Below are positions 11,776-32,187 of a stretch of DNA of 64,000 nucleotides, in pieces. The notes beneath the pieces were generated by a model, which did no database searches, was not told the origin of the DNA, and worked only from the letters and a program-made list of their open reading frames with translations. Position 1 is the first letter of the stretch. Each line of letters opens with the position of its first letter. This DNA is from an uncultured Gammaproteobacteria bacterium (GTDB taxonomy: Bacteria > Patescibacteriota > Microgenomatia > Daviesbacterales > UBA10151). The DNA lies in assembly GCA_964396715.1 (NCBI GenBank), contig CAYNFQ010000002.1, forward strand, positions 2,234-66,233. Direction: 5' to 3'. The position numbers and the translations under genes were made by a program.

Positions 11776-11816
11776 ATTTCAGTCTTCAGCTATCAGCTTT
11801 CAGACTTTAAAATTGT

Positions 11817-11844
11817 CTGACGACTGACGACTGACGACTGACGA
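11817..11844. repeat. heptamer tandem repeat (CTGACGA)x4 abutting the dnaN start codon
   Basis: Direct reading. Confidence 0.85.
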
Positions 11845-11850
11845 CTGAAA

Positions 11851-12969
11851 ATGAAATTTACCATATTACAACAGGATTTTTTGCCCAAGTTGCAATCTGT
11901 TTCCAGGTCAGTGGGCGTGCGCTCCACCCTGCCTGTTTTGGATAATATTTTACTTTCGGTAGCAGGCTCGCCTCGCGGCGAAGCGGGCAAAAAACTGAAA
12001 ATTGCCGCCACCAATTTGGAAATAGGTGTTATTAAATATTTGCCTATTGAAGGAGGGGAAGACGGAGAAATTACTATTCCTGCCAAAACCATAGTAGAGC
12101 TAATTTCCGGCTTAGACCAATCCAAGGTGGAGCTTGCCACAACAGGGGAAGGCTTGACAGTCTCAAGCGGCAAACTCAAAGCCTTCATCAATGGTATCCC
12201 TGCCTCGGAATTTCCGGCCATACCTTTATCAGAGGAGAAAGGGATCAGTTTTTCCAAAGAAGCGCTTCAAGAGTGCTCTGGGATCCTTTTTGCCTCGGCT
12301 GTGGATGAGGGCAGACCGGTTTTGACGGGGATTTTAACAGAAGCCAAAGATGACAAATTGGATTTCGTAGCCACAGACGGCTTCAGACTGGCCCACCGCC
12401 AGGTAGCATTACCCAAAGGATCACCTCAGTTTAAAAGTTTAATCCCCAGGAGAACTTTTGAGGAAGTTTTACGCATTATGGGGGAGGAGGAAGCGGAGGA
12501 GATCAAGATTGCCACCACTGAAAACCAAAACCAGGTCATATTTTCCCTGGGAACAACAATTGTGTCCTCAAGGTTGATCGAAGGTCAATTTCCTGCCTGG
12601 GAAAAGATCATCCCCGCCTCCTCGGTGGCCAGGGTGGCGGTAGATAAAGAGGAATTTTTGCGGGCCATCAAACTGGCAGCTGTTTTTACCAAAAACGAAG
12701 CCAATATTTTGGTTTTAAATACCCAAAAAAACCTCTTAAAGCTTAAATCCTTTGCCAAAGAGCTGGGCAGCCAGGAGAATGAGATTGAGGCGGAGGTGGC
12801 AGGTGAAATTGAGGTGGCCTTCAATACCAGATTTTTACAGGAGGTTATCTCCAATGCTCCCTCAACTCAAGTCAGCATTGAATTTTCAGGCCCGCTTTCT
12901 GCCTCCTTAATCAAACCAATCGGAGTCGAAGGATTGGAATATATTGTCATGCCGGTGAGGCTGAGTTAA
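11851..12969 (+). CDS. dnaN: DNA polymerase III beta sliding clamp
   Basis: 372 aa with three-domain clamp architecture; position after dnaA. Confidence 0.9.
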   Translation: MKFTILQQDFLPKLQSVSRSVGVRSTLPVLDNILLSVAGSPRGEAGKKLKIAATNLEIGVIKYLPIEGGEDGEITIPAKTIVELISGLDQSKVELATTGEGLTVSSGKLKAFINGIPASEFPAIPLSEEKGISFSKEALQECSGILFASAVDEGRPVLTGILTEAKDDKLDFVATDGFRLAHRQVALPKGSPQFKSLIPRRTFEEVLRIMGEEEAEEIKIATTENQNQVIFSLGTTIVSSRLIEGQFPAWEKIIPASSVARVAVDKEEFLRAIKLAAVFTKNEANILVLNTQKNLLKLKSFAKELGSQENEIEAEVAGEIEVAFNTRFLQEVISNAPSTQVSIEFSGPLSASLIKPIGVEGLEYIVMPVRLS

Positions 12970-13835: not shown

Positions 13836-16670
13836 TTATTGAGAAGTTATCTTTACATCATCCAGATACACAGCTGTCGGAAAATCATTTGTCACTCCAA
13901 ATCCAATATATACTCTTTTTCCTGATATTCCAATTTTTGAAAGCCCGTCAGCGCTTAAATTTATATTAATCTTTTTCCAGCCGGAAAAAGCATCAGAACA
14001 ATCAAAAGCAGCGCCTCCATCAATAATACACTCATACCCGGAGGAAAAATTCCCCTTACCACATTCGCTGAAATCAGGAACACCGGGAACATAACCAAGA
14101 AAAATTTCTTTCCCCGGATAAGGAGGAGTCTCCTCATTTGCTATATAAATATAAAACGGAGCAGACCTATTTGTCCCGACCTGATAGGTACCCTCACTTT
14201 TTATCTTGAACCAGAATTCAATTGAAATTCCGCTATTCATATTTGAGCTTTCAATATATTGTCTTACTTCAGGAAATATACGGAAACTTCCAGGTGTTGG
14301 ATCGCCCCCGTTATATATTTTGGGAGCTTGGCAAAGAGCTGCATTTTCTCCTCCAATTAGTATTGCAGATTTTCCGCTGTGAGCATCTGTAGTAAAACTT
14401 AAATTATCACTGAATTGACCCGCTTTATAAGAAGCTGTATTTGTCCACCCGGACAAAGAACTTTCAAATCCGCAGTTTTGTATAAGATTATTGCTTGTTT
14501 GGCAGGAGGCGGTATTATTTTGAGCGGAAGAAGTGCTAGTTGAAGAAGAACACCTCCCCCAGTAATTGGTATTAGTTTTTTGTACTCCGGCATAGTTATT
14601 ATCAGACAGATTGTCAGAGGACTTTAAAAGAGAGGAGTCTGGATCGGTAATCCCGATAAATCTTAAAGGGTTTACCAATACTCCGTTAATTTTAATTTTA
14701 TAGTGGACATGAGAGCCTGTTGAACCACCGCCTGTTGAGCCGACGATTCCTACAATACTTCCCCTTGTTACATTATTTCCTTTATCAACCCTGGAAGTTT
14801 GCAGATGTTCTAAAGTTATAACCGTAGATTTATCCTGACTGGTAATCTCTACAAATCTTCCCTCGTCACCATTAGCATCTGCTGCGCTGACAGTCCCATC
14901 AATGGTTGATTTTACAGGAGTAATGCCCTCTGTCCCGGCAATATCTATGCCGTTGTGGCATTGCAGAAAGCTGGAAGGACAATCTTGGTTGCGAACATTA
15001 GGATATCCTGGAATATTATAGCCGTATGGTGTGGTAATAGTTTCCTCAACAGGACAACCCAGGGATTGGTTTTGGGAGGCAATAATTTGTTGGCAGCTTT
15101 GGATGCTGGTCCAGATGTCAGTACCGTAGTTATAAGGGCCGCTGCACTTTAGTGGGTCTCCACCCCCATACTCTAAACAGCCATAATAACCTGAAGCTAC
15201 CTTATAGATAACATTTTGATTGCTATTCCAAGAAGGATCCCATTTTGTTCCATCTCCGATACCATACCCCAACTCTAATCTTTTTAAGATAAACCCAGCT
15301 GATAAAATAATACTTGTTTTAGGATCACAAAAATCTGTCTCAGTAAGCTGATCCAGGGATTTACCCAGAAAACCTGCTCCTAATTCTAATCCTGCAGAAA
15401 ACCCCCCTCTTGTACCAGGAGGCTGAAGCTGCATAATTCCTAAGGCTCCTGTTTGGCTTCTTGGACAACCGGCAATTGAGCTTAAACTGGGTAAATCTGC
15501 ATCTGTTTTAGAGGTAATTGTGGGAGACTCCACCCTGGCTATGGCAGCCAAGACAGCTGCTGGAACAGAAGAGATGCGAGAGGCTTCTTGAAAGTAATTC
15601 AAAAGAAGAGGGCTTTTATAGCTTTCTTGAGCAGGAGTTCTATCTCCTCTTGTAAACTGGCAACTGTTTAAATTTGTGATTGGGTAACTTGCAACAGGTG
15701 CAGCTTCACCTGATGGGGTTGTTTGGGAAAGGCCGCCAATTAAGCCTACACCCAAAACAAGGAAGAAAAAAGCTCCAACTAGACCCCAGATTAGCTTTTT
15801 TGATCCGGAGGACACAAAGGATTTAGATGCACTTCTTAATTCGGGACTGGAAAGTCTTTCAAAAGCATTAAGGCCGTGGTTTGCTGCTTTCCCCAAAAGA
15901 TTGTATGTGCCGGTCAGCCCAGGACCGGCAATACCTCTGCCTACTCCTTTGGCTATTTCCCAAAGACCCCTGCCTATTCTACCTAAATTTATTTTGGTAA
16001 ATCTTTGGCTAGCAGAGCCAAAATTTTTGGCTGCATTTGTAAATGAATCAGGCATTTTAAAACTGCGCCAGTTAAACCTTTGGAGAGCAGCAGTTTGCGC
16101 GTTTAGCCGGTTTGTTTCAGCTTCCAGTCTGTTTGCTTTATTAGTAGCAGCCGTGCCTTGGCCTGTTCCTCCCTCCATGCCTCCAATAGACGGAGGAGCC
16201 TGGTTGGCAATAAAAATACGCCGGGGAGTGGAAGAAATAGCTGGACCAGCAGGCAAGCCCGGCACACCCATTGTGCCCCCTGCTTCGCCAACAGGTACCT
16301 GTGTGCTTACGCCTTGTCCGGCTGAAGCTTCCTGACTGCCTACTTGTTCGCCGCTCCACCCTGCCGCAACAGGCTTTTCCCCTAACACTTTTGTTAATTC
16401 AATTTGCTGTGCCTGGGTAAAGTTACCCAAGAGAAATTTTCTATTATTTGGATCGGATAAATATCTGATAATGGCATTGTCATCTTTGAATTTGTCTCCT
16501 TGAAACTGTGGGAATCTGCGAAGCAATGAAAGACAGTAAGGTTTATCTACAGGTGTTCTTTGCCCGTTGATCATAGCAGAAGAAGGGATTTGTTTTAAGT
16601 CTTGTTTGAAGCCGCTATCTTTTAATGCCGAAAAAAATGCTATGAGTTTTTGAATATCCCTATAATCCAT
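13836..16670 (-). CDS. PrgK/VirB1-like bifunctional peptidoglycan hydrolase: lytic transglycosylase (SLT) + M23/LytM peptidase, single TM, Cys-rich C-terminal domain
   Basis: SLT motif ...ARVESP...GALGIMQL; M23 motif HNGIDIAG...GSHVHYKI; TM helix LIWGLVGAFFFLVLGVGLIGGL; adjacent to VirB4. Confidence 0.75.
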   Translation of the reverse strand: MDYRDIQKLIAFFSALKDSGFKQDLKQIPSSAMINGQRTPVDKPYCLSLLRRFPQFQGDKFKDDNAIIRYLSDPNNRKFLLGNFTQAQQIELTKVLGEKPVAAGWSGEQVGSQEASAGQGVSTQVPVGEAGGTMGVPGLPAGPAISSTPRRIFIANQAPPSIGGMEGGTGQGTAATNKANRLEAETNRLNAQTAALQRFNWRSFKMPDSFTNAAKNFGSASQRFTKINLGRIGRGLWEIAKGVGRGIAGPGLTGTYNLLGKAANHGLNAFERLSSPELRSASKSFVSSGSKKLIWGLVGAFFFLVLGVGLIGGLSQTTPSGEAAPVASYPITNLNSCQFTRGDRTPAQESYKSPLLLNYFQEASRISSVPAAVLAAIARVESPTITSKTDADLPSLSSIAGCPRSQTGALGIMQLQPPGTRGGFSAGLELGAGFLGKSLDQLTETDFCDPKTSIILSAGFILKRLELGYGIGDGTKWDPSWNSNQNVIYKVASGYYGCLEYGGGDPLKCSGPYNYGTDIWTSIQSCQQIIASQNQSLGCPVEETITTPYGYNIPGYPNVRNQDCPSSFLQCHNGIDIAGTEGITPVKSTIDGTVSAADANGDEGRFVEITSQDKSTVITLEHLQTSRVDKGNNVTRGSIVGIVGSTGGGSTGSHVHYKIKINGVLVNPLRFIGITDPDSSLLKSSDNLSDNNYAGVQKTNTNYWGRCSSSTSTSSAQNNTASCQTSNNLIQNCGFESSLSGWTNTASYKAGQFSDNLSFTTDAHSGKSAILIGGENAALCQAPKIYNGGDPTPGSFRIFPEVRQYIESSNMNSGISIEFWFKIKSEGTYQVGTNRSAPFYIYIANEETPPYPGKEIFLGYVPGVPDFSECGKGNFSSGYECIIDGGAAFDCSDAFSGWKKININLSADGLSKIGISGKRVYIGFGVTNDFPTAVYLDDVKITSQ

Positions 16671-16685
16671 ATCATTAGTGTATCA

Positions 16686-18449
16686 TCAAACATTTTGCCG
16701 GGCCAATAATTCCTCCGGGTTTGAGGTGATTAACTGATGTTCGGAAGGCGAGGCTACCACTCTCATGGCCACATGGGTATTTCCGGCAAAAAACAATCCT
16801 TCCCCGATGCCCTCAGACATCAAAAGCCTTTGTTCCCCTTCCGACAAATTAAAAACCCGGCCCAACAGATCAATTGAGGCGGGAGCCTGTTTTAACAGGA
16901 TTTGGATTGAAGAGTTGGAGATAATTTCCTTGCCCCGGTCGGTTGATAAAAAATCCTCCACATCCTGGGTGATAGTGGTCAGCCCCAAATAATACTTTCT
17001 TGATCTTTTGGCAATATCCACCAAAAAATCAGCCGAATCCTGATTTCTCATCAAATACCAGGCTTCATCTACAATCAGGATGCGTTTTTTGAGTTTGCTG
17101 CGGATCTTGGTCCAAATAAAATCCAATATCAGATGAATTGCCAGAGGCCTTAGCTGATCAGCCAAATCCCTGACTGAAAAAACAGTGAATGAGTTGGATA
17201 AATCAATATTGGAGCGGGAGGAAAATATGCCTGCTAAAGAGCCCTTGATAAATCTTTCCAAGCGGGCAGCCAGCTCCATGGCAGAGGGTTCTTCCATGCC
17301 GATCAACACCTTATACAAATCCTCCATCAAAGGAGGGCCGGATGGCGGGTTAATTTGAGTTTTGGGATCATCGGTGATGCCTTTTTGTTGGTATGTTTGT
17401 TTTAAGCTTCTGTCCAAAATTGCCGCCTCGGTGGCGGAAAGCGTCCCCAGGACAATTTTTAAAAATGCGGTTAAGGATAAAATTTTTCTTCCCAGCTCAT
17501 TCTCACCTGAGGATACATCAAAAGATAAATCAAACGGATTAATTTTGGCAGGGGATGATGATGAAAAATTAATATATTCCCCCCCGACAGCCTGCGACAG
17601 TGTTAAATACTCCTGCTCAGGGTCAATCACAATAATTTCCGTGCCAAACATTAAAGAACGCATAGCTTCCAGTTTTACTAAATAACTTTTTCCCGCTCCT
17701 GATTTGGCGAAGACCACAGAATTGGCATTCTCTAAACTGAACCTATCAAACAAAATCAGCGAATCATTATGCTCATTGATGCCGTACATGATCCCCTCAT
17801 TGGCTGTTAGCTCAGATGAGGCAAAAGGGAAAGTGGTGGCCAAAGCCGTGGTGTCCATATTGTGGGTTAAATTTAACAGGTCTTCTCCCAAAGGCAGGGT
17901 GGATTTAAAACCATCCTCCATTTGCAGTGTGGTTGGTTTGGCGCTCATGGAGAGCGATGCCAGGGTTCCCTCAACCAGTTTGGAAGTATTGTGCAATTCT
18001 TCCAAATTAACGCTGGGGACAGTGATGTACAAAGCAAACTGGAAAAATCTTTCCACGCCTTTGACCAGTTGGTCCTGCAATCCTCTGGCATCTTCCAGCG
18101 CCACCTCAACAGAGGGATCAATAGCTCTGCCCCGTTCCAGATCTGTTTGGATGGTTGCCTCCATCTCGGCAATTTTTCTTTTCAACTCATCCAAAACCCC
18201 GGCGGACTGGGAAGGATAAATAAACATGGAGATTAAAAGAGAATGGTCAAAGGAGATGACCGGTTCCAGCCAGTTTGGTTCCACAAAGCGGGGGTAACTG
18301 GATACAAAATAAGTTCGGGAAAACCTGTTGTCTATTCTGATGTGGTTAAAATCAACTTCAATTTCCGCAGGAGCAATCACGTCCTCCAAAGTTAATTGGA
18401 TAGTGGTATCTTCTGTTTTATTTTTTTTACCAAACAGGTTAAATTTCAT
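16686..18449 (-). CDS. virB4: VirB4/TrbE/CagE-family ATPase, C-terminal ATPase portion
   Basis: Walker A FAKSGAGKSYLVK; Walker B LIVDEAWYLM; 587 aa. Confidence 0.85.
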   Translation of the reverse strand: MKFNLFGKKNKTEDTTIQLTLEDVIAPAEIEVDFNHIRIDNRFSRTYFVSSYPRFVEPNWLEPVISFDHSLLISMFIYPSQSAGVLDELKRKIAEMEATIQTDLERGRAIDPSVEVALEDARGLQDQLVKGVERFFQFALYITVPSVNLEELHNTSKLVEGTLASLSMSAKPTTLQMEDGFKSTLPLGEDLLNLTHNMDTTALATTFPFASSELTANEGIMYGINEHNDSLILFDRFSLENANSVVFAKSGAGKSYLVKLEAMRSLMFGTEIIVIDPEQEYLTLSQAVGGEYINFSSSSPAKINPFDLSFDVSSGENELGRKILSLTAFLKIVLGTLSATEAAILDRSLKQTYQQKGITDDPKTQINPPSGPPLMEDLYKVLIGMEEPSAMELAARLERFIKGSLAGIFSSRSNIDLSNSFTVFSVRDLADQLRPLAIHLILDFIWTKIRSKLKKRILIVDEAWYLMRNQDSADFLVDIAKRSRKYYLGLTTITQDVEDFLSTDRGKEIISNSSIQILLKQAPASIDLLGRVFNLSEGEQRLLMSEGIGEGLFFAGNTHVAMRVVASPSEHQLITSNPEELLARQNV

Positions 18450-19195
18450 ACTTCTGTTCCTAATTCTTCCACCACAAACGGGTGGTTTCTTGAGTACTGG
18501 GTGGTAAGTGGCGGTACAGGAGGCTGGTTGAGTTTTTGTTCGGGAAGTGCTGATTTTAAGTCCGGTTGCACAACTATCTTTTGCGGCTCCTTTAGGGTCA
18601 CCTCCATCTGCCGGCCGCTTATTGAGAGGGGTTGGCTGCTTTGGAAACTCTGACCATTGTAGATACTGTAAAAAAGCTCAAGCAATTCTTGGCCGGTCAG
18701 TTGTGAAGTCTTAAGTCCGACTCTTGACAGTTGTCTTAAGACTTGATCCCTTCTTGGCAGCAGCACGGTTTTAATTTTCTGCTGCAGCGACTCTGTTGAG
18801 GCAGTCAGTCCCAACTCTAAGGAAAAAAGAGGAATGACTACATAGAATTTTTTATCCAGGACATCATTTTCCTTAATGGTAGTTTGAATAAACTGGCGAT
18901 AACTGACAATCATTTTTGATAAAAGCAGATTAGTCTGTATTTTTTGGGCCTTGTCCAAAAGGGTGAGGTATGAGTTGATATTTAACCTTTGAGAGTGGAT
19001 GACGATTTGGATACTGAATGATAAGGAGTTTAGCATTTGGGCAAAGCTGCCAATGATGGCCATTTGCTCTCTTTGGGAAAGCAGGCCAAAATTAACTGCC
19101 CCCACTTGTAAAACCAGTGCCCCTCCGCCTCCTTTGAGGATTAAAATGTCCTCCCGAATATCCTTAATAGACAAATGCTGCTGTGTTGTGCTCAT
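18446..19195 (-). CDS. VirB4 N-terminal domain encoded as a separate ORF (split VirB4)
   Basis: 249-aa ORF with a VirB4/CagE N-domain-like pattern; 4-nt ATGA overlap with the ATPase ORF. Confidence 0.55.
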   Translation of the reverse strand: MSTTQQHLSIKDIREDILILKGGGGALVLQVGAVNFGLLSQREQMAIIGSFAQMLNSLSFSIQIVIHSQRLNINSYLTLLDKAQKIQTNLLLSKMIVSYRQFIQTTIKENDVLDKKFYVVIPLFSLELGLTASTESLQQKIKTVLLPRRDQVLRQLSRVGLKTSQLTGQELLELFYSIYNGQSFQSSQPLSISGRQMEVTLKEPQKIVVQPDLKSALPEQKLNQPPVPPLTTQYSRNHPFVVEELGTEV

Positions 19196-20214
19196 CCTAC
19201 TGCCTCCTTTGCTGTGATTGTCAAAGGTGAGATCACCTGTCCTGTTAGTTCAATTTGCAAGACATCAAAACCGAAAGTATCTTTTTCCAATTCAATTTTA
19301 TAGGTGCCGTTTGGCAAAGGCGTTGCCCCTGAGAATTGGCCCAATTTGTTAGTTTTTAAGGCTCGGACAGGCAACCCTTCTTTATCGTAAATAACCACCA
19401 CCACGCCTTCCAGGGAGTTTCCGCGGGCATCCTTGATAATGCCGTTAATCACATTGGGAAAAGAAGTCAGGGCAATTTGGGTCGCTTTGCTTTTTTGTGG
19501 GGTGATAACTTTTACCTCAGGTTTGGCCATAGGCACAGGTATGGTTTGAGATTTTAGCTCCTCCTCGCCGACAGTTTCCAGTTGTTGTTTAATCTGCGAT
19601 GCCTGGTTGACCAAATTTTGCAAATCAGCCAAAACCTGGTTGACCTGCCCACTGTAATCAACAGGGATAGGTTTTGGTTTTTGCGCTTCTTCCCTGATAT
19701 GACTTAAGGTCCGTTCGGTTTGGATGATCTTCCATTGCAAATTTTGTGCCTCTTTTGCCAAATCAACAGTTTTTTTCAGATCATCCGCAGTAGGTATGGG
19801 TTCTGGCGGTATGACAGCCTGGCTGGGGACGGTGGTGGCTTCAGCCGGAGCTGGGGGATAAAGACCGGAAACATAGGTGACAAAGCGAGAACCAAACAGC
19901 GGGTCATTAACAGCAGTTTTGTTGTTTTTCTGCCAGACTCTTTTGGTGGGAGAATAAACAGCTTTTAAAAATGCCCCCAGCCAATAATCCAGAGGTCTTG
20001 AATTTATAGGCAAAAAAGCAAACGCAAAGCCCAAAGAGGCGGAAATTACAATCAGCGGCCAGGCAATTAAGGGATAGGCAGAGGAGACAAACACAAACAA
20101 AACATAGGCAATAGTTGAACCTGCTGCCAGATACATAAATTGTTTTAAGGTCATATCCCCGATCAGATGAAACTCAAAAGTGGTCACATTTTGCGGAATA
20201 GGATGCGGTTCCAT
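19192..20214 (-). CDS. VirB3/PrgI-like membrane protein fused to C-terminal carboxypeptidase-regulatory-like beta-sandwich domain
   Basis: N-terminal two-TM PrgI-like segment (FEFHLIGDMTLKQFMYLAAGSTIAYVLF). C-terminal GVVVVIYDKEGLPV...GTYKIELEKDTFGF CarbopepD_reg-like domain. ATGA overlap with the downstream VirB4-N ORF. Confidence 0.5.
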   Translation of the reverse strand: MEPHPIPQNVTTFEFHLIGDMTLKQFMYLAAGSTIAYVLFVFVSSAYPLIAWPLIVISASLGFAFAFLPINSRPLDYWLGAFLKAVYSPTKRVWQKNNKTAVNDPLFGSRFVTYVSGLYPPAPAEATTVPSQAVIPPEPIPTADDLKKTVDLAKEAQNLQWKIIQTERTLSHIREEAQKPKPIPVDYSGQVNQVLADLQNLVNQASQIKQQLETVGEEELKSQTIPVPMAKPEVKVITPQKSKATQIALTSFPNVINGIIKDARGNSLEGVVVVIYDKEGLPVRALKTNKLGQFSGATPLPNGTYKIELEKDTFGFDVLQIELTGQVISPLTITAKEAVG

Positions 20215-20270
20215 TAGGTAGGGTATAGCGTATAGAGAATAGGGTATAGTTGAATCTTCATAACTATAAG

Positions 20271-20660
20271 CTAAACGCTACTGACTAAACGCTTACTAAT
20301 ACCTCCTTTCTCTCTGTATACCATGACGCATAACATCTTGATGACTTCTAATAGTAATTCCTCCGATTTGCTAAAGCTCTCAGTTGGCGCTAACTGGAGT
20401 TCTTTAGAAATAACAAGCTGAGTATCCAATTCTAAAGCAGATCCGTAAGCAATAGCGTAAAATTGTAAGTATTCTTTATGTGATCGTCTAGCATAACCCT
20501 CTGCTATATTAGAAGGAATAGAAATTACTGCTCTGTGAATCTGTGAAATAATAACAAATTGCTCATTTCTGGGAAACAACGATGTTAATTTATATACCTC
20601 TTTGACTAATTGTATAGATTTTTGCCAGACAATTAATTCTTTATATGATTGTATTTTCAT
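20271..20660 (-). CDS. four-helix-bundle protein of the 23S rRNA intervening-sequence family (TIGR02436-like), copy 1
   Basis: WQKS...IAEGYAR...EYLQFYAIAYGSALELDTQL motif pattern; flanked by CTATACGCTAAACGC-type inverted repeats. Confidence 0.75.
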   Translation of the reverse strand: MKIQSYKELIVWQKSIQLVKEVYKLTSLFPRNEQFVIISQIHRAVISIPSNIAEGYARRSHKEYLQFYAIAYGSALELDTQLVISKELQLAPTESFSKSEELLLEVIKMLCVMVYREKGGISKRLVSSV

Positions 20661-20865
20661 AACTATACGCTAAACGCTACTCTCTATACGCTTCGTTATA
20701 CAATGTGAAAAAAATAATGGCAAGCAGCACAAAGGGGATCATTATGGGACAAATATGGTTAAATGACAAAATCCAAATGCCAAATTACAAATGAAATCTT
20801 AATTTCAAATTTTAAATTTTAGTCATTTGATATTGGAAATTTGAAATTCTTATGTTATTCTTAAT

Positions 20866-21053
20866 TTGTGGTGCACTAGTCCGATGTCATATCGGACCAA
20901 GGTGCAAAAAGGGAATCCGGTTAAAATCCGGAGCTGTGCCGCAACTGTGATTAGTTAGAGAATAGTAAATAGCGTACAGCGTTTAGTTATAAACAACTAT
21001 ACGCTAAACGCTTCTCTCTATACCCTAACTTTAAGTCAGGAGACCGACCACAA
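20866..21053 (+). ncRNA. cobalamin (B12) riboswitch
   Basis: Core AAGGGAATCCGGTTAAAATCCGGAGCTGTGCCGCAACTGTGA. B12-box-like AGTCAGGAGACCGACC. P1 candidates TTGTGGT/ACCACAA. Lies in the 5' leader of 21078..21986. Confidence 0.6.
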
Positions 21054-21077
21054 TTTAGATCCCGTAGCAGGAAAAAT

Positions 21078-21986
21078 ATGTCAGTTCAACAACTTGAAAG
21101 AGAACAATTACCAACTTTTTATTCCCAGAAAGCTGAAGAGCATGCCTCCCGTGTTTTAGAAACCCACAGGATTCCTGATCCCTATTATTTTTTAATAGAT
21201 CAAGATGGTGATTTATTTTCTCCGTCAGCACACTTAAAGGTTAGGGAGAAAATAGATACCAGTACAAGAGTAGGGATGTTGGAAGCTCAAGCATTTCAGG
21301 AGACCTCTCATTGGGCATCTGGTGCCGAAGCTGGTGCAAGTGCCTGGGTTAGCCCACCAGGACATTATCCTGTCTCCAAAATTATTATAAGCGAGATTGA
21401 GAAAGTTAATGGAGTAAAAAGGATTTTTAATAGAGCAATAGTTTTGGATATTAATGAAAGCGAGTGTTTGGATTTAGGACGAAGGCTTAGTGCTTATTCA
21501 CTAAATCAGCCGTTTTTGACCTATTCAGACCAGTTAAGAAGTACTCCAATAATATTGGACACAAAAGAAAAAAATTGGCTTGAGATTATGGAAGAGGTAA
21601 TGCCTGATTCTTTTTTGTGGGAGAGTATTAGAAGAGGGGATGAGGTGATTGCCAAACAAGCAGCTTTAGCAGAAGCAGAAAGAATTTTTGCCAAATATAG
21701 AGTGCCTGGAAGAGATCACAATGACTATGCTGATAATAGAGAGATGCAGAGGGATATGCAAAGCATGCTGGGAGATAAACCGGAAAGCTGTCCTCCCAGA
21801 CTATCTTCTGGTGCGGGGCAAACTGCTTTTCAGGTTTTTTCTGAAAACGCCTTGACATTTAGTAGTTCAGCAAACAAAGACCCTGATTTTTGCGAGGTTT
21901 GTCCTGCCTGTGAAGAAATAATTAATTGTGTTGTTAAAACAGGTAGCAGTTGTCCTAAATGCGGAGCAGTCAAAAGATGTGGTTGA
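21078..21986 (+). CDS. hypothetical protein with C-terminal CxxC...CxxC zinc-ribbon; putative B12-riboswitch-controlled gene
   Basis: 302-aa ORF with AGGA RBS; C-terminal CEVCPACEE...CPKCG motif; no recognisable family. Confidence 0.5.
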   Translation: MSVQQLEREQLPTFYSQKAEEHASRVLETHRIPDPYYFLIDQDGDLFSPSAHLKVREKIDTSTRVGMLEAQAFQETSHWASGAEAGASAWVSPPGHYPVSKIIISEIEKVNGVKRIFNRAIVLDINESECLDLGRRLSAYSLNQPFLTYSDQLRSTPIILDTKEKNWLEIMEEVMPDSFLWESIRRGDEVIAKQAALAEAERIFAKYRVPGRDHNDYADNREMQRDMQSMLGDKPESCPPRLSSGAGQTAFQVFSENALTFSSSANKDPDFCEVCPACEEIINCVVKTGSSCPKCGAVKRCG

Positions 21987-22165
21987 CAAAGTTAGCTAAG
22001 TTAGAAACTTATAGAAATTGGTAGAAATAAATGGAAATACAGTAGATATATAATAGAAATTAACTGAACAATTTTATCGCTAGTACTTACAAATCTAAAG
22101 AAAAGCAATAAATTTCAATTTATTTCGCAAACTTTGTTTGCATATTTCTATCTGTTTCCGATCTC

Positions 22166-22300
22166 TTTTGTCAGAATTTTAAGACGCGCAAGCGTCGCAA
22201 GCTCCGCTTATCAGTTTAATATCAAGCACTTCGACTACGCTCAGTGTAAACTTTTTCCAAGAATTGACACCAGGTTTGGGAAATTCTATGCTGGTTTAGC
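22166..22300 (+). repeat. dispersed promoter-bearing repeat, copy A (short variant)
   Basis: Shares ATCAGTTTAATATCAAGCAC...TGTTTGGGAAATTCTATGCTGG with three other loci. Ends in TTGACA-17nt-TATGCT. Confidence 0.7.
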
Positions 22301-22963
22301 ATTAAGTAATAATTTATTTGCCTGATTAACAAAATATTCTATCATCCCTTCTTTATTAAAAGGCACCAGTATTTTCGGGAAATCCTTCAGGTTATTTACC
22401 TCAAGAAGCATATGCGCAAAATAAAATTCGGAAAGCCCTAAATCTTTCTTTTTTGCATCCTGTAAAAGTTTATCAAATGTAAATATTTTTCTTTGAATGA
22501 TGAAATATAAATCAATAAAATCTTTAGCTTCAGTTCTCCCTAAAATAGCCGTCATTTTATTGCTACCAATATTTTCAATTGAATCAACCCTTATTCTGCC
22601 GAAATTTTTTATCTGGCCAAAATGTACAGGCTGTTCTCTGACAAAGTCAATTTTTAACTCTTTACCCTTGCCGATTAGAAAAAAAAGGTGGAAGTTTACT
22701 GTAGCCACACGATGATCCAGTTTAGTATTTGTTTGTTTTGCTATATCTGTCAATACTGCCTTAATGGAATTAACTTCAATATCCTCAAAGGTGAAAAGAT
22801 CAAGATCAATACTTCTACGGTGTTTGAAATAAAAACCTGCAAGAGCAGTACCTCCTGTCAGGAAATACTTTTTCCCTATAGTTTTTTCGAAAAAAAGATC
22901 AAGGACAGTTTGTTGTAAATTAGTGAGAGGAGTGTCTTTTTTCATCTTTATTCCATAAATCAA
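22286..22963 (-). CDS. nucleotidyltransferase AbiEii/AbiGii-family toxin (DUF1814)
   Basis: GGTALAGFYFKHRRSIDLDLF motif. Confidence 0.7.
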   Translation of the reverse strand: MIYGIKMKKDTPLTNLQQTVLDLFFEKTIGKKYFLTGGTALAGFYFKHRRSIDLDLFTFEDIEVNSIKAVLTDIAKQTNTKLDHRVATVNFHLFFLIGKGKELKIDFVREQPVHFGQIKNFGRIRVDSIENIGSNKMTAILGRTEAKDFIDLYFIIQRKIFTFDKLLQDAKKKDLGLSEFYFAHMLLEVNNLKDFPKILVPFNKEGMIEYFVNQANKLLLNAKPA

Positions 22964-25039: not shown

Positions 25040-25130
25040 TGTAAGGAATAAATCAAGCAGTTTGACTCCGCTCAATGTAAACTTATCCCGGACTTGCAAA
25101 GATGTTTGGGAAATTCTATGCTGAAGTTAG
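25040..25130 (+). repeat. dispersed promoter-bearing repeat, copy D (short variant)
   Basis: Same conserved ends; TTGCAA-17-TATGCT promoter pointing into the 1391-aa ORF. Confidence 0.65.
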
Positions 25131-25272
25131 GGACTAGGGATTAGCAACTAGGGTTTAGTAAAAACAAACTATACCCTAAACCCTACACCCTATACCCAAA
25201 AAAAGGCCATGGAATTTTCCCAAGTATAATTGTAGAAAGTTATAACCTTGAGCGAAGCCGAAAGGGAAAAAT

Positions 25273-28200
25273 ATGGCAGAAAGATTAAGCATGGCAGAAG
25301 CAACATCCGGCCCAGGGCCAGAAGCTACACCTCCTGTGGGTGAGGGTCAAGCTGTCCCTCAATCATCAGGTGAATTAAGTCCTCAAAGACCCTGGCATAT
25401 CTCAAAAGAGTTTGATCCTAAAAGGACAGATTATACTTCAAGGGAAGAAGGGAACTGGAATATTTTTGTTGACCCTAAAACAAACAAAGAAGTAGCAAGG
25501 GCAATAAAAATGTCAGGAGGGGCAGATAAAGAAGATGGTGAATACTATGATGGTTCGCAAGAAAAACCAAAAGAATGGTGGCCTTTCACAGAGGATGAAT
25601 GGAAAAATCTTGACATTAAGGATAGGATAGTTGAGGCTGCAGTTTTGGCAATGCGGCATTATTATGACATGGATAATGTAGATAGAGCAGCTAAAGAAAA
25701 AGAATTTTCCATGGCCTATCAAGATTTTTCAGAATACGCTTTGGGTAAAAAACTTTATGACGGAAAAGATACCCGGGTTATTGCACTAGAGTTAGAACTG
25801 GTGAGCTTTGATAAAACAGAAATAGAAAAATATAAAGCAGATCCCGAAAAACAAGGACAGATTGAAGAAGCTCTAAATAACCTGGATGCTCTTGAACATG
25901 AGCAAGCCGGTATTCAAAATGCCTGGAAGGATTACGGCATTACAGATCAAAATAAGAATGATGATCAGTTACGCCCCCCGCATGTTGCACAAGATGAATG
26001 GAAGAAGTATTTGGAAGGAAAGGATGAGATTAAGACAAGATTAGAAGCAGCAAAACAGGCACTTGTAGCTTTAACCAGCCAGGAATTTTTCAATAAAAGA
26101 GAAAAAATCAAAATAGAAGTTGGAGATAAAGTCAAAGAATTAAAAGAAGAAATGGAGAAAAAAGAAAAGGAAGCAAAAAAAGAAGGTGTCCGGGTTGATG
26201 CAGAACAATGGGAGATAGATGCATATAAATTGGAGAAAGAATTGGAAAGAAGCTTATTACAGGGGACAGAAGTCTCTTCGGATCCAGATAAATCGGATGC
26301 TGATGTACCAGTTGAAGAAATACTTAGGTTTATAAAAGAAGAAGGAGAAAAGCCTGTTGCCGAACAATATACAACTGGTTTGGAACGGGCAAAAAAAGTT
26401 CTGGAATGGAATTTTCATGAGGCAAGAAAGCTTGGCATTCTGGAAGATTTGGAAGAAAGGTTTGAGGAAAGATATAAGGAACTGGCAACAGCCGTATTTT
26501 CCAAAAGCAGGACTGATCAGGGTGATACGGAGATTGAAACAAGAAGAGGTCCTCGTAATCTGACCATTGCCGAGATAAAAGAAACATTAGCCAGAGAAGC
26601 AGATGAGCGTAATCCGAATTCGCTCTCAAATACGGCAGAATCAGATACTTTCTGGAAATATCTTGTTAGAGACGGTCTTGTACCCGGAGACAGAGTAAAT
26701 CATTTTAAGGGCATCAGAAAAGCCTTTGTTGACGGGACATATGATCAAATATATGATTCTTTGTCTAACTTATATAATCGCTATAGAGCGGATGAGCTAA
26801 GAGGAAAATTGCAGCAGCAGTTAGACCGGGATGTAATAACTCAACAGCAATATGACAGAAGAATCAATGAAATAAACAACCCAAGAAATATACAAAGGAT
26901 ATCCGGAGAATGGGATGTCCGGAAATATGAAAGAGATATAATGGCCGGTCTGGATAATGAAGAGAGGGCAGAAGCAGGAAGGTTATTTTATATAGACAGG
27001 TATTACCTTACTTTAACAGGCACAACAGAAGCGCAGATTGAACAGGGTGTAAATAATTATCTGACAAGCATTTTGGAAGGAGCGCATGTTTATGATGTTC
27101 AAACAATAATGCAGAAAATGCAATATTTATCTCAGGCTATCATGTCAAAAAAAGATGTTCTTATGCAGTCCGGTATGTCAGCAACTGATGCCCAGGCAGC
27201 CTTAACCAGAATCAATATACTCGCAGAAAACAGGGGAGAATTCTATGTTATGAATTTTTCCGCGCAGAATCTTTTGATGGATGAATACTTTATTCCTTTA
27301 TATGATAAATGGGGGGGAGTGAAAGGGATTGAAAAACTGAAAGAGAGTTTGGATATGAATGATGGTTTAATTGCACCGTGTATGCTTTTGTTTTTAGATA
27401 AAAAGAACCGTTTATTATTTCAACCGGCCGGATTTAAAGGGCAGGGCATGAAAAATATTTGGGCCCAGAGAACCCTGCGGGATAAAATTAAAGGGCAGAT
27501 AGCAGAAGAGCTGGTAAATTTTCAGGCTAAAAAAGCCAATTCTACGGAATTGATGGAACAAGCCACATGGCAGGATTTCTTAAGAATGAAGTTTGAAAAA
27601 AGGTGGGATAAAAAAGATGAACAAGATAATAAAATATTTTTTAAACCAAAAGAGGAAACAGATGCTGCTAAAAAAGCATATCAGGCTGAATATATGCGGG
27701 TTAAAACGGCAGCAAAGCCTGAAGATTTGGAAAGTCTAAAAAGGTTAAGGGAGGAGTACACAAAACAAAAGAATAGGTACGATAGATTGTTGGATCGGGC
27801 CAAAAGCGCTGTTGAGACTACTTGGCAGGTGTTCAATATTTTTGGAGAATCAGCCCGTCTTGGTGCCCCTTCAATAATCATGCGTAACGGTGACCATATC
27901 AGCATTGAGGATGCAACTTATTTCTATAAATTCGTTCTATTGGATGCAATGAAGAAAAGCGGAGATACCCCGGCAATGATGAGGTGGAGAGCCTATCAAT
28001 GGGTTAAGAACCACAGGCAAAGCGAAAAAAATCCAGTTATAAAAGACGGTGTGACTACTTATGAATTAGTTGCAGGACTTGAAGATACAGGGATAACAAA
28101 AGGGGAATACGATGAATTTTTGAAAGCAGTTAAGGAGTTGAGGCTAAACGGTTATAAAGCAGCATTTAGGGAATACAGTTTTGAAGAAATTATCAGCAGA

Positions 28201-29448
28201 AATGATGTCAGACCTGTTAGGAATAATTTTATCAGTAACTATAAATCATCCAGAGAGATATTTGCTAATCCAACAGCCATGAGAGAAGCCAAAAAAGGCA
28301 GACAGCCTTTCATAAAGAATATTCTGGAAAGGTTAGACCGTTCCGGCAGGGGTCAATTTACGGCCCTGGATAGGGCAAAGATAGATGGGAAGCCTTTAGA
28401 TGGGAAGCCTTTAGATGGGAAGCCTTTAGATAAAGTACCGGACGAAAGATTAAAAGAGATTTTTGAAGATGCAATCACGGATTCTTTTGTATTCCATATT
28501 ACTGCCAGGCAATTAGCTCTCTGGGAGGCAACCTTGGAATCTTCTGTGGATGCTCAAGATAATATTGTTTACACAGATAAATTTTCCACTGGCCGGATTT
28601 ACTATGGTAGTCAGGATATCCCCTGGGGAGTTAAGAGACTGCAATATCTGCCGGAATACTGGATGACTAATAAAAGGGAAAGAATAGGCAGGGCATGGAA
28701 ACTTTTGCCATTTGTCCCTCTTTTGAAATCCGGTCTTGCCCAGGAATGTGACGCAGAAAATCTGCCGGATCTGATTCTTAATGTTAATAAAGAACATATT
28801 GATGAGCCGGGACTTAAACAAATAGCAGCAGGTTATAAAGATGCGCAGGGTTGGAGACAGCGGGGGGAGACATCAGTGGATGAACAAAGAGGGGAAACAA
28901 ATTGGGCCTGGTGGGATAAGCTGACAGTAGATGCAGCTCAGATTCTTAAAACTTTACCACAATTAGACTTTCCTCCACAATCTAAAAATGATGCTACAAA
29001 ATTAGGCATATTTGATTATATTATTGATGTACCTAACCCAGAAGAATTTATGAAGAATCATCCAATCCCGTTTGCTTCTAGAAAGGTGCTTGTTGATACA
29101 GCTAGGGAAATACTTAAAAGAGAAGCACCATTAAATGTTTTCCTGGAGGCTCAACTGGGTTATAACCGGAGCGCAGGAGGTTCCGGAATAGGCCTTGAAA
29201 TGGGTGAGAGATGGCATTACAGGATATTAAACTGGTGGTTATCAGAAGTACCAGGTGATATAGATAATAAAAGAGGCACGGAAGGAGGATTAGAAGTTAA
29301 CAGTGATGCTGCAATATTCCTAAAGTTTATTACTATCAAAAATAGCTGGTCAGCAGGTGTATCTATTTTAGACGAGGCATGGAGGCAGGCGCGGGGTACT
29401 CGTGATGCCGGTGCTTCTGATAAATTGCCGCAGGAAATTATTACTTAA
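25273..29448 (+). CDS. giant hypothetical protein (1391 aa), K/E-rich, predicted alpha-helical/coiled-coil, no signal peptide
   Basis: Uninterrupted 4.2-kb ORF with AGGGAAAAATATG RBS. Contains a (DGKPL)x3 15-bp tandem repeat at 28384-28428. No catalytic motif recognised. Confidence 0.6.
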   Translation: MAERLSMAEATSGPGPEATPPVGEGQAVPQSSGELSPQRPWHISKEFDPKRTDYTSREEGNWNIFVDPKTNKEVARAIKMSGGADKEDGEYYDGSQEKPKEWWPFTEDEWKNLDIKDRIVEAAVLAMRHYYDMDNVDRAAKEKEFSMAYQDFSEYALGKKLYDGKDTRVIALELELVSFDKTEIEKYKADPEKQGQIEEALNNLDALEHEQAGIQNAWKDYGITDQNKNDDQLRPPHVAQDEWKKYLEGKDEIKTRLEAAKQALVALTSQEFFNKREKIKIEVGDKVKELKEEMEKKEKEAKKEGVRVDAEQWEIDAYKLEKELERSLLQGTEVSSDPDKSDADVPVEEILRFIKEEGEKPVAEQYTTGLERAKKVLEWNFHEARKLGILEDLEERFEERYKELATAVFSKSRTDQGDTEIETRRGPRNLTIAEIKETLAREADERNPNSLSNTAESDTFWKYLVRDGLVPGDRVNHFKGIRKAFVDGTYDQIYDSLSNLYNRYRADELRGKLQQQLDRDVITQQQYDRRINEINNPRNIQRISGEWDVRKYERDIMAGLDNEERAEAGRLFYIDRYYLTLTGTTEAQIEQGVNNYLTSILEGAHVYDVQTIMQKMQYLSQAIMSKKDVLMQSGMSATDAQAALTRINILAENRGEFYVMNFSAQNLLMDEYFIPLYDKWGGVKGIEKLKESLDMNDGLIAPCMLLFLDKKNRLLFQPAGFKGQGMKNIWAQRTLRDKIKGQIAEELVNFQAKKANSTELMEQATWQDFLRMKFEKRWDKKDEQDNKIFFKPKEETDAAKKAYQAEYMRVKTAAKPEDLESLKRLREEYTKQKNRYDRLLDRAKSAVETTWQVFNIFGESARLGAPSIIMRNGDHISIEDATYFYKFVLLDAMKKSGDTPAMMRWRAYQWVKNHRQSEKNPVIKDGVTTYELVAGLEDTGITKGEYDEFLKAVKELRLNGYKAAFREYSFEEIISRNDVRPVRNNFISNYKSSREIFANPTAMREAKKGRQPFIKNILERLDRSGRGQFTALDRAKIDGKPLDGKPLDGKPLDKVPDERLKEIFEDAITDSFVFHITARQLALWEATLESSVDAQDNIVYTDKFSTGRIYYGSQDIPWGVKRLQYLPEYWMTNKRERIGRAWKLLPFVPLLKSGLAQECDAENLPDLILNVNKEHIDEPGLKQIAAGYKDAQGWRQRGETSVDEQRGETNWAWWDKLTVDAAQILKTLPQLDFPPQSKNDATKLGIFDYIIDVPNPEEFMKNHPIPFASRKVLVDTAREILKREAPLNVFLEAQLGYNRSAGGSGIGLEMGERWHYRILNWWLSEVPGDIDNKRGTEGGLEVNSDAAIFLKFITIKNSWSAGVSILDEAWRQARGTRDAGASDKLPQEIIT
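28384..28428 (+). repeat. 15-bp in-frame tandem repeat x3 (DGKPL) within the 1391-aa ORF
   Basis: GATGGGAAGCCTTTA x3. Confidence 0.85.
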
Positions 29449-31252
29449 TTAATCCTGGTCTTCTTGGCCACGAAAAACCACCTTTCCATCCAACGAAATT
29501 GCCCGCTTTATCAAGTACTTGAGTATGTTGAGGGTTCCAAATAGGTCCTGATGTTTCTCCAAAAAGCGCTTTATTCCATCCGCCTAATTGTCCGCCTACG
29601 GCGCCTCGTCCTTGAGCAAAATATCCCTGACCGCTTCTGATACCTCCGGAAATTTCCTGACCAAGCAACTGTCCTGCCTGGCCCATTTTCCCAATAGCGC
29701 TAACAACGATATCCGGAATTTTAGGTAATGCCACCAATGCCCCGAAAGCCAAAAGAATTTTAATAAACTCCAAATCCATGCCACCCAAAAGAGGAAAGGT
29801 TGTGTTGCCTACAATTTGTATTGGTTCCGCAGCCAAAGCAACAGGCATAAAATTGTTGCCTGCAGGACTTACTGCATCAGTAACAACTTTAAGCGGTCCA
29901 AAATCCTTCCCCAAAATAAATGCTATAAAATAAAAGACAGCCAAGACTGCGGGAAAGATTAAAATATTACCCAGCATATTTAATACCCAGTTAGTGGCAA
30001 TTCCTTGTCTGCCGGGCAGGGAAGCAGCCAGAAATTGAAAGGGAGCGCTGATTGTTAGGAAAATAATGGTCAGATAAGCGGTGATTAAACGCAGGAGCAG
30101 TTTGAGCATAGCGTATATTAGCGCAATCATAGCAATGAAACTTAATATAAATCCTAACCAAAATTGAGTAGTGGCAGCTACGATACCTCCGGCTACTGCG
30201 GTTATTAGCGGACCCAGCCACAGCCCCAAAGGGGGAGGAATAGCCGATGTTAAGGGACTGACAAATTGAGCGGCGATAAAGCCTGTAAAAAGCCTTAGCC
30301 ATCCCTGGACCTCTCCGCTTAGTTTATCAAATATAGCTATCACTGCATTTTCTGCTTTTTCTTGGGTAACTATGCTCACAAATTCACTAAAAATACTTAA
30401 AACACTATCGCCTGATATTTGCTGTACCAAGTTTGTTCTTTGCGGGTCATCTAATTTTCCTTGAGCTGCTGCAAAATAATAGCCGACTGCGTTAGTACCA
30501 ATAAAAGCAGTATCAGAAATAAATCCTGCCAAAAAGTAGGAAAAAGTAATTAAAATTAAACCAATAACTAACCCAGGTAGTGCTGCCTGGGCTGTGATGA
30601 CTGTCTGTGGGTTAATCCTTTGCCGAAACATCACCATCAGCCCGATTATGACAAAAATTATTATCATCACCAGATAAGAAATATTTCTGGAAACCTGCCA
30701 GAGGGATAAAATTGGACTTAAGACACTGGCCCCTGATCCACCTACTTGAGCCCGGGCCTCTTTTACAACTCCCAGGCCTTCTCCCAAAGATGCCAGGTAA
30801 TCTGCTGTTCTGATAGGAGGGTTTGCATAAAGTCCTGCTATAAGGCCTGTGGTGGTCCCTAAAAGCCCTCCTGAAAGATTAGCTGAGGAAAGCACCGGAA
30901 TGGACTGAATTGCTCCCTGGGCATTCTGGGTCAGCTGATAAGTTAGACAGGGTTGGCCGATTACTGATGAACCAATAGAAAGACAGGAAAAGGTATGGAA
31001 TATGTTATGCACCAGAAGGTCTGTGTATAAAGGGGAGGTGGGGGGGATGGTAGGTGGTAGTGAGTAGGTTGTAGGTTGTAGGGAAGAAGGAGAAGGAGTA
31101 GAAGTTTGGGCAAAAACAGGAGTGGTGAATAATGTCAAAATCAAAATGACAAATAACAAATGAATGACAAAGCCAAAATGACAAATAACAAATTTTTTGA
31201 AATTTAGATTTGATTTGACATTTGACATTTGAGCTTTGAGTTTTCCAACCAT
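29441..31252 (-). CDS. VirB6/TrbL-like polytopic membrane protein (putative T4SS channel component) with Gly-rich C-terminus
   Basis: Signal peptide followed by at least six TM helices and large loops; location next to the pilin and VirB4 loci. The first approximately 20 codons are encoded by AAATGTCAAAT-type repeats, so the real start may be internal. Confidence 0.4.
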   Translation of the reverse strand: MVGKLKAQMSNVKSNLNFKKFVICHFGFVIHLLFVILILTLFTTPVFAQTSTPSPSSLQPTTYSLPPTIPPTSPLYTDLLVHNIFHTFSCLSIGSSVIGQPCLTYQLTQNAQGAIQSIPVLSSANLSGGLLGTTTGLIAGLYANPPIRTADYLASLGEGLGVVKEARAQVGGSGASVLSPILSLWQVSRNISYLVMIIIFVIIGLMVMFRQRINPQTVITAQAALPGLVIGLILITFSYFLAGFISDTAFIGTNAVGYYFAAAQGKLDDPQRTNLVQQISGDSVLSIFSEFVSIVTQEKAENAVIAIFDKLSGEVQGWLRLFTGFIAAQFVSPLTSAIPPPLGLWLGPLITAVAGGIVAATTQFWLGFILSFIAMIALIYAMLKLLLRLITAYLTIIFLTISAPFQFLAASLPGRQGIATNWVLNMLGNILIFPAVLAVFYFIAFILGKDFGPLKVVTDAVSPAGNNFMPVALAAEPIQIVGNTTFPLLGGMDLEFIKILLAFGALVALPKIPDIVVSAIGKMGQAGQLLGQEISGGIRSGQGYFAQGRGAVGGQLGGWNKALFGETSGPIWNPQHTQVLDKAGNFVGWKGGFSWPRRPGLIK

Positions 31253-32181: not shown

Positions 32182-32187
32182 AGGCGG

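Follow-up and report, generated by a model that had tools for sequence, protein, structure and literature searches.

In the cobalamin riboswitches of Escherichia coli btuB and env8, binding of a corrinoid leads to a kissing loop between L5 and L13, by which P13 is stabilised and the ribosome-binding site occluded (PMC10327014; PMC6158498). The published consensus of L5 is UCCCG (PMC10327014), and a bulged kissing loop has been described for env8 (PMC6158498). In Coxiella 23S rRNA the intervening sequence (IVS) has a 28-bp terminal stem, with tandem heptamers before the S23p open reading frame (ORF), and the stem is cut by RNase III (PMC4990558). Here we analyse a 64,000-nucleotide (nt) stretch of DNA, the window, in which the leader of a gene for a protein of 302 amino acids (aa) contains a cobalamin riboswitch whose P6 loop bears a hairpin with heptamer arms. 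The 302-aa protein is identical to HYZ05_00950, a hypothetical protein of a Candidatus Daviesbacteria metagenome-assembled genome (MAG), and by this identity the window is placed in the Microgenomates branch of the Patescibacteria, or candidate phyla radiation (CPR). An earlier note on this DNA had spoken of a reduced genome, an apt term for Candidatus Daviesbacteria, since contigs of near-complete relatives are 0.74-1.13 Mb. Orthologous loci are cited below by L numbers, and the positions of all features are collected in Table 1.

In an Rfam scan of the complete window, RF00174 was matched on the forward strand with 63.6 bits (gathering score 31.5, E 2.2e-13). The earlier note had called this leader a cobalamin riboswitch and had staked the claim on a significant RF00174 match, which was obtained. 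Both motifs that it named are present, the conserved core AAGGGAAUCCGGUUAAAAUCCGGAGCUGUGCCGCAACUGUGA ending at 20950 and the B12 box AGUCAGGAGACCGACC at 21034-21049. The core junctions GGGAA ... GCCGCAAC ... AGYCAGGAGACC were found at 20911-20950 and 21034-21049, and are invariant in 12 aligned orthologues. The minimum-free-energy fold of the leader recovered P1, P2, P4 and, at the tip of P6, a single long hairpin (z = -4.0). P4 is supported by covariation among the orthologous leaders: its five pairs were all kept in 17 of the 20 leaders where the pattern was located, with nine different stem sequences. From a reading of the same leaders, P1 varies between loci with its pairing kept. Class-II switches are without a P6 peripheral extension, their terminal L6 loop docking on the T-loop of L4. 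The insert-free orthologues L002, L006, L007 and L021 have a 6-nt L6 loop, UAAAGU. The best family of the window's aptamer is RF00174, and that of distant orthologues is RF01689 (33-43.5 bits). As a separate observation, a near-identical 19-nt hairpin, GUCCGAUGUNAUAUCGGAC, caps P2 of the riboswitch (20879-20897) and a helix of a group I intron in the window (59854-59872), and occurs in L023 at the P6 tip of the orthologous riboswitch (about 2988-3006); this may be a small hairpin module, reusable or mobile, of structured RNAs.

The expression platform was analyzed in the window and in the orthologous leaders. The 3' strand of P13, GGA, lies inside the Shine-Dalgarno sequence AGGA (21069-21072), 5 nt ahead of the ATG, and the P13 loop CG(UA)GCA is complementary to L5 with a 2-nt bulge (1-2 nt in orthologues). 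The motif UCC-CG(N0-2)GCA-GGA was found in 21 of 21 translational orthologues, with the ATG 0-9 nt further on; the stem is UCC/GGA in 19 of the 21 leaders and UCU/AGA in L015 and L019, a compensatory change. Folded alone P13 is weak (-2.1 kcal/mol), which fits the kissing-loop model, since that model requires a marginal P13. No terminator was found between the aptamer and the ATG of the 302-aa gene, and transcriptional attenuation was rejected for this leader, which is without a terminator. L008 and L012 have a different platform, which closes with an evident terminator, CCCCTCGAAAGAGGGG and then T6, and to these two attenuation does apply. The promoter-like site ahead of P1 has a counterpart in L021, L022 and L023, where a -35/-10 pair stands at the equivalent site, 6-9 nt before P1. 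By the proposed mechanism, transcription would start near 20863 and the aptamer, from P1 to the B12 box, would bind a corrinoid; binding would let L5 (UGCCG) kiss L13 (CG-UA-GCA) of the marginal 3-bp P13, whose formation would hide the Shine-Dalgarno sequence and repress translation. On this analysis the leader is probably a translational OFF switch that acts through the L5-L13 kissing loop.

Compared with the described systems, the leader is like RF00174 and the clan CL00101, and especially like class-II env8 and E. coli btuB, in its core, B12 box, P4/L4 and a P13 that includes the ribosome-binding site. Its L5 is near the UCCCG consensus and its P13 hairpin could kiss L5; the insert-free orthologues are as compact as class-II switches, and the distant ones match RF01689 best. 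It departs from env8 and btuB in having UGCCG as L5 and a bulge of 1-2 nt in the proposed kissing loop. Unlike class II, with a plain L6, and class I, with P7-P11, its P6 loop bears a mobile heptamer hairpin and, unlike in known cobalamin switches, the regulated gene lies outside the known B12 regulon families. The L5 variant CUGUGCCGCAACUGU was considered as a mark specific to the protein family and rejected, as 80 loci of a metagenome scan had the motif and the family protein followed in only 3; L051 and L074, with the same platform, encode unrelated proteins outside the family. In the J1/13 linker, between aptamer P1 and P13, a second heptamer hairpin (GTGACTA/TAGAGTC family) was seen in L010 (~5850-5950) and L011 (~5945-5985), and a small CCCCGAUUUAAUCGGGG hairpin stands at the same place in L001 and L003.

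The protein family was delimited by a profile search of 1.84 billion representatives, which gave 477 clusters at 50% identity (E <= 1e-3). Nearly all members among 150 listed have about 250-350 aa, and all named sources are Daviesbacteria, Microgenomates, Chisholmbacteria or Patescibacteria. A few MAGs with the family are labelled 'Gammaproteobacteria'; they have the same synteny and a VirB4 80% identical, and are probably mislabelled. A cobalamin-clan aptamer was found directly upstream of the family gene in 26 of 26 distinct loci, in 22 of them at or above the gathering score. The remaining four fall just below it (L008, 33.0 bits, L015, 35.0, and L146, 33.4, against 36.5; L144, 25.9 against 31.5) and have the same L5 and P13. 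The pairing of aptamer and gene holds down to about 25% protein identity, in three genomic contexts and with two kinds of platform. Since the aptamer stands upstream in every one of the 26 loci, there is strong evidence from these sequences that the family belongs to a B12 regulon.

The regulated ORF encodes 302 aa, as the earlier note had read it. The Cys-rich module that the note placed at the C-terminus is there, with a different spacing: not CxxC-x-CxxC but CxxC-x13-CxxC, formed by C275xxC278 and C292xxC295. The cysteines of this region are C272, C275, C278, C284, C292, C295 and C301, of which 272, 284 and 301 are extras of the subtype. The protein is acidic, no transmembrane segment was found in it (maximum 19-residue hydropathy 0.82), and it is predicted to be soluble and cytoplasmic. 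The AlphaFold model (predicted local distance difference test 86, predicted template modelling (TM) score 0.76) has an alpha/beta domain with PAS-like strand order at about residues 17-206, followed by helices and a flexible stretch with the invariant SC238PP and by a C-terminal two-knuckle ribbon (272-301) with beta strands at 271-274 and 281-285. E28, S92, C238, C275, C292 and C295 are invariant down to about 25% identity; E69, W90, R154 and C278 are nearly so, with C278 conserved in 90% or more of the distant set. A profile search of the PDB matched the C-terminus to the eL43/L37Ae zinc ribbons (E 2.6e-4), the only PDB sequence match, and from sequence and model the C-terminal module is zinc-ribbon-like, with two CxxC knuckles as a putative metal site.

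Beyond this ribbon, the searches of described families were negative. No family of Pfam or NCBIfam matched the 302-aa protein, Pfam gave only stray zinc-ribbon matches on 36 distant members, PHROG and PADLOC gave no match, and the PDB sequence searches with the single protein and with the profile gave nothing other than eL43-like zinc ribbons. Foldseek against PDB and BFVD returned nothing below E 0.01; its best matches were haem-PAS domains at low probability (<=0.47, TM <=0.38), a resemblance that is not significant. All of these searches agree with the earlier statement that known B12 transporters and enzymes give no match to the protein. QueH and MetE-like and NrdD-like back-up enzymes were considered as candidates; the protein gave no profile or fold match to a described family. 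We regard the family as a strong candidate for an undescribed B12-related function. In L029 (9362-10870, minus strand) a 503-aa protein stands behind the same riboswitch and platform; it has only the C-terminal 'GCPP ... ESDSMGSLYFPCPVC...RC' module in common with the family, and its N-terminal part is longer and different. This suggests that the CPP and zinc-ribbon module may be a portable, B12-relevant unit of the regulon.

What lies between core and B12 box was then compared with the rest of the window and with the orthologous switches. A copy of a dispersed repeat does lie inside the switch, as had been claimed, with limits other than the 20950-21015 first given for it (Table 1). With up to 2 mismatches allowed, the window has eight occurrences of the repeat itself, the 15-mer CTATACGCTAAACGC, where 0.05 would be expected. 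The insert is a hairpin with arms of about four heptamers each and a 10-nt loop, without an ORF. Five further copies of its arms were found in the window (20225 on the minus strand, 20271, 20670, 25176 and 42424; 0 expected), and matches to the arms occur elsewhere in their own genome piece in the window, L016 and L003. The length of the P6 site, taken as the distance between GCCGCAACNGTNA and AGYCNGGAGACC, is 0 nt in L002, L006, L007/L020 and L021; L004, L009, L011, L022 and L023 have a plain 17-30-nt hairpin there, and the window, L001, L003, L005, L010 and L013 a heptamer hairpin of 76-97 nt. The note's view that this site tolerates variable length is thus borne out at the same point of the orthologues. 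At the site, the lengths are 0, 17 and 20 nt in the three relatives closest to the 302-aa gene (proteins about 65% identical), which indicates that the 83-nt hairpin is lineage-specific.

The heptamers at the P6 site differ between genomes: CTAWACG in the window, TAGGGTT / CTATACC in L001 and L010, CAGTCNT / CTGANAG in L003 and L005, and GTCAGNN in L013. The CTGAAAG family, found at the P6 site of the L003 and L005 switches, is also present in the window at 11773 and 24362. These sequences indicate that hairpin families are common to these genomes and that different families came to occupy the same riboswitch loop.

Hairpins of this kind are dispersed over the window. At least 11 gene-less hairpins with heptamer arms were found; two scans gave seven each, eight of them distinct, with none in 5 and in 10 shuffles, and the rest were seen directly. 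They belong to several sequence families and lie for the most part between genes, often directly at a start or stop codon. One (58092-58151) lies between dnaG and rpoD, and another (20783-20859) overlaps the riboswitch promoter. Two further elements in the window hold a 23S_rRNA_IVP gene, and one of these, of the same heptamer family as the insert, sits between the start of prgI (20214) and a promoter-like site at 20769-20741, probably within the 5' untranslated region of the prgI operon. All 23S_rRNA_IVP genes examined (two in the window, one each in L003 and L016) lie in the loops of hairpins with heptamer inverted arms of about 31 nt. Each of the four elements has its own heptamer (CTAWACG, ATGTACA, AGCGTAA/CTTTACC and TAGAGTC), and none is in rRNA.

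These elements resemble the IVS of the S23p / 23S_rRNA_IVP family (PF05635), such as that of Coxiella burnetii, in having a stem of about 28-31 bp built of inverted repeats with tandem heptamers, in the insertion, for the riboswitch copy, at the helix tip of a structured RNA, and in the IVP genes held here in hairpin loops. The riboswitch copy itself has the stem of an IVS, with inverted repeats of about 28 bp and tandem heptamers. It differs from one in being ORF-less, 78 nt long and in an mRNA leader rather than in 23S rRNA, and the heptamer elements here differ in being dispersed in intergenic DNA as several families. The loop of the insert has no 23S_rRNA_IVP ORF of the kind present in 20218-20700 and 59261-59724, and the Rfam scan found no rRNA in the window. 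Since it lacks an ORF and lies outside rRNA, the insert was not filed as a true IVS, and from its sequence it is best described as an ORF-less, IVS-like hairpin. Repetitive extragenic palindromic (REP) and miniature inverted-repeat transposable element (MITE)-like palindromes and the cyanobacterial heptameric short tandemly repeated repetitive (STRR) sequences are likewise short, intergenic, multi-copy and hairpin-forming or heptamer-periodic, in genome-specific families. The palindromic arms of about four heptamers combine both properties, unlike REP/MITE or STRR sequences, and are associated with IVP genes; no association with a transposase, or with a REP-associated tyrosine transposase (RAYT), was seen for the heptamer hairpins, unlike REP/MITE.

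The insert is probably a tolerated neutral passenger that forms no part of the sensor. It splits the L6 loop between UAA and AGU, at a P6 tip that would be structurally permissive and point away from the ligand-binding core. Class-I cobalamin riboswitches have a peripheral extension of their own, P7-P11, at the P6 position. The 83-nt segment might itself be such a native extension, resembling the repeat by chance, and Rfam does align it within the variable P6 region of the model; we find this scarcely credible, given the five more arm copies in the window where none is expected, a two-arm heptamer architecture that recurs in at least 10 other intergenic hairpins, the absence of the segment from the closest orthologues, and the presence at the P6 site of other genomes of different heptamer families that recur elsewhere, for example CTGAAAG. 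A disabled switch would be a different outcome of the same insertion, with a relic leader, or one cut by RNase III, and a gene that is constitutive or destabilised. The insert is recent, the closest relatives being without it, and IVS stems of such architecture are RNase III substrates in Coxiella (PMC4990558). Yet the conserved core and platform nucleotides are all intact, and those of the window are identical to the insert-free L021; 6 of the 21 orthologous switches, which represent several lineages and heptamer families, have a hairpin of this type at the same spot; the scores of the switches with a long hairpin are full-length and overlap with those of the switches without one (50-64 and 52-71 bits, respectively); and class-I switches naturally bear a large extension at this position. 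Loss of the switch is therefore very unlikely in our view. As a secondary possibility, the IVS-like hairpin could make the leader an RNase III substrate and yield a naturally split riboswitch.

The genomic context of the family gene bears on the function of the protein. The gene directly adjoins a PrgI / TraC-like / VirB4 operon in about 20 of the 26 loci, usually in divergent orientation, as in the window. L147 has it in the same orientation as the operon and as the first gene before it; riboswitch and family gene stand there (2256-6670) 131 nt upstream of co-directional PrgI-like, TraC-like, VirB4 and M23 genes, and the B12 switch might gate the whole secretion-type operon. Riboswitch and gene are kept together away from the secretion cluster in L014, L019, L144 and L146, the last three by genes of triose-phosphate isomerase / phosphoglycerate kinase and L014 in a third context, and a glutaredoxin gene adjoins the family gene in L019 and L146. 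All four of these loci have metal or redox genes within a few kb (ZIP, ArsR-YHS, VIT1, glutaredoxin and Rrf2-IscS-IscU). Chance may account for this, or it may hint at a metal or Fe-S centre in the Cys-rich module; it was judged too weak a basis for further argument.

From what is established for cobalamin riboswitches, the protein would be made when corrinoid is scarce, and its role could be in binding, reduction, dealkylation or adenosylation of scavenged B12. Such intracellular corrinoid handling is the role that our analysis tentatively ranks first, because it would suit a soluble, lineage-specific protein that has a Cys-rich metal site and a lone invariant Cys, in an organism not expected to synthesise B12. 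The earlier note had suggested that the cofactor may be scavenged from a host. It would be like the PduO/CobA/EutT adenosyltransferases, CblC, BtuM, PduS and RACo in logic only, namely B12-riboswitch control, a cytoplasmic place, an invariant Cys and a Cys-rich metal site; of these, EutT, BtuM, PduS and RACo work with Cys or Fe-S sites. Neither in sequence nor in fold was the protein found to be similar to them. The second large class in cobalamin regulons is that of B12-independent isozymes, such as metE and nrdAB/nrdDG, which in other bacteria are repressed when B12 is available, and a substitute of this sort for a B12-dependent step would also be shut off by the switch. The class itself, the soluble protein with invariant acidic, Ser, Arg and Cys residues compatible with an enzyme, and the neighbouring glutaredoxin gene in L019 and L146 speak for such an isozyme; we consider it unlikely, however, as the protein has no likeness to enzyme families in Pfam, NCBIfam and the PDB, evolves much faster than the neighbouring genes, and belongs to a family whose named sources are all Patescibacteria, whereas the known isozymes are widespread. 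Somewhat less credit still is given to a regulator or accessory of the PrgI/TraC-like/VirB4 secretion-type apparatus with B12, to be had only from hosts or neighbours, as its cue. The adjacency to the operon persists down to 25% identity and survived the change of orientation in L147, and the divergent layout with a common intergenic region, the weakly PAS-like N-terminal domain and the zinc ribbon would suit a regulator. On the other hand, the four loci away from any such cluster keep both riboswitch and gene, the cluster lies beside dnaA/dnaN so that the synteny could be vertical inheritance, the PAS resemblance is not significant, and no DNA-binding domain was detected. A new B12-linked factor coupled to the secretion-type machine, with scarcity inducing a component or regulator or with the apparatus helping to acquire corrinoid, is doubtful to the same degree.

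The explanation favoured as a whole, an OFF riboswitch with a passenger hairpin ahead of a corrinoid-handling protein, is held to be moderately probable. Several points weigh against it. L5 and L13 are invariant in the family, leaving the loop-loop pairs without covariation, and covariation is limited to the P13 stem, where it rests on the two sequences L015 and L019. A known corrinoid-binding or -processing fold was not matched in the 302-aa protein by Pfam, PDB or Foldseek, and its sequence lacks a DxHxxG motif. The protein is fast-evolving, with 38-50% identity where VirB4 has 80-85%, which is unusual for a core metabolic enzyme, and neither B12-dependent enzymes nor B12 transporters were seen in the 64-kb window. 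The 30-bp duplex in the leader might moreover be an RNase III substrate and impair the switch.

As to novelty, the riboswitch class is already known and the regulated family is undescribed. A search of the full-text literature on B12 or cobalamin together with Patescibacteria, CPR or Daviesbacteria gave no paper treating a cobalamin riboswitch there and nothing relevant on the use of B12, and no account was found of a cobalamin riboswitch whose P6 tip bears an IVS-like heptamer hairpin, with families differing by genome.

The 302-aa gene lies about 9 kb from dnaA and dnaN and is divergent from the operon of PrgI, the TraC-like protein and the VirB4-type ATPase; toxin-antitoxin genes and a gene for a 1391-aa protein follow downstream. 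The transcription unit is taken to be monocistronic in the window since the next gene, AbiEii, is on the minus strand. A large secretion-type cluster stands beside dnaA/dnaN, at 13836-20214 (minus strand) and 25273-37875, with genes for PrgI, a TraC-like protein, a VirB4/TraG-type ATPase, a 944-aa protein, an M23 peptidase, T4SS_pilin and the 1391-aa and a 603-aa protein, neither of the last two with a domain. It is syntenic in Daviesbacteria and other Microgenomates, VirB4 being 80-85% identical between genomes. The window also has many genes of toxin-antitoxin type, such as AbiEii and the PIN genes at 43224-43649 and 53349-53750. The first of these PIN genes separates smpB (42448-42885) from a nearby tmRNA in one piece (43674-44099, minus strand, 100 bits). 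A group I intron (59671-59995; Rfam, 81.9 bits) lies between tRNA-like halves, UCCCCUGUAGCUCAACGGUAGAGCGGGAUCCU... and ...GGUUCGUGGUUCGAAUCCACGCGGGGGAG, for which ARAGORN made no tRNA call; it is flanked directly upstream by an IVP element and directly downstream by the gene of a serine recombinase (60024-61700, minus strand).

Table 1. Features of the window and of the orthologous loci; positions are those of the window unless a locus is named.
Feature	Position or loci	Strand	Details
Promoter-like site	20827-20856	+	TTGATA, 18-nt spacer, TATGTT; ends 9 nt 5' of P1
Cobalamin riboswitch aptamer	20852-21066	+	RF00174, full model 1-189
P1	20866-20872 paired with 21047-21053		UUGUGGU/ACCACAA
P2 hairpin	about 20873-20905		
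P4			UCCGG/CCGGA, with L4 loop
L5	20937-20941		UGCCG
ORF-less insert, apical loop of P6	20951-21033 (83 nt); hairpin 20953-21030 (78 nt)	+	
Insert, left arm			TAGAGAA TAGTAAA TAGCGTA CAGCGTT TAG
Insert, right arm			CTATACG CTAAACG CTTCTCT CTATACC CTAAC
Expression platform P13	21060-21072	+	UCC-CGUAGCA-GGA
Regulated gene, 302 aa	21078-21986	+	
Weak terminator-like hairpin	22127-22150	+	3' of the 302-aa gene
AbiEii gene	22286-22963	-	next after the 302-aa gene
Gene-less heptamer hairpins	7717-7784, 11773-11854, 20783-20859, 24362-24439		
Gene-less heptamer hairpins	31144-31240, 39664-39756, 58092-58151		
Gene-less hairpin	25128-25200		same or sister heptamer family (TAGGGAC... / CTATACC CTAAACC...); upstream of 1391-aa ORF
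Gene-less hairpin	42375-42451		same family as insert; ends at smpB start codon
23S_rRNA_IVP-bearing element	20218-20700	-	same heptamer family as insert; gene 20271-20660
Arms of this element	20218-20250; 20262-20300; 20661-20699		left; internal right-arm copy; outer right
Second 23S_rRNA_IVP element	59261-59724		gene 59283-59645
IVP elements in relatives	L003 2259-2625; L016 19813-20230		
RF00174 at or above gathering score	window, L001-L007, L009-L011, L013, L014, L021-L023, L147, L148		
RF01689 at or above gathering score	L012, L018, L019, L145		
Metal/redox neighbours	L014 3834-4331, 9132-9890; L019 7240-8228; L146 7033-7287, 10760-11443; L144 9161-11241		

Patescibacteria are believed to rely for cofactors on other cells and, to our knowledge, B12 sensing and handling have not been described in them. 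A family without known relatives that stands under a B12 switch in every locus examined offers a testable entry to B12 handling in this group, and its near-constant adjacency to the secretion cluster points to a possible tie between cofactor status and host interaction. The occurrence of different heptamer families in the same loop shows that helix tips of structured RNAs are permissive, and perhaps preferred, landing sites, and ties the dispersed hairpins to the S23p/IVS elements of 23S rRNA, which have long lacked an explanation.

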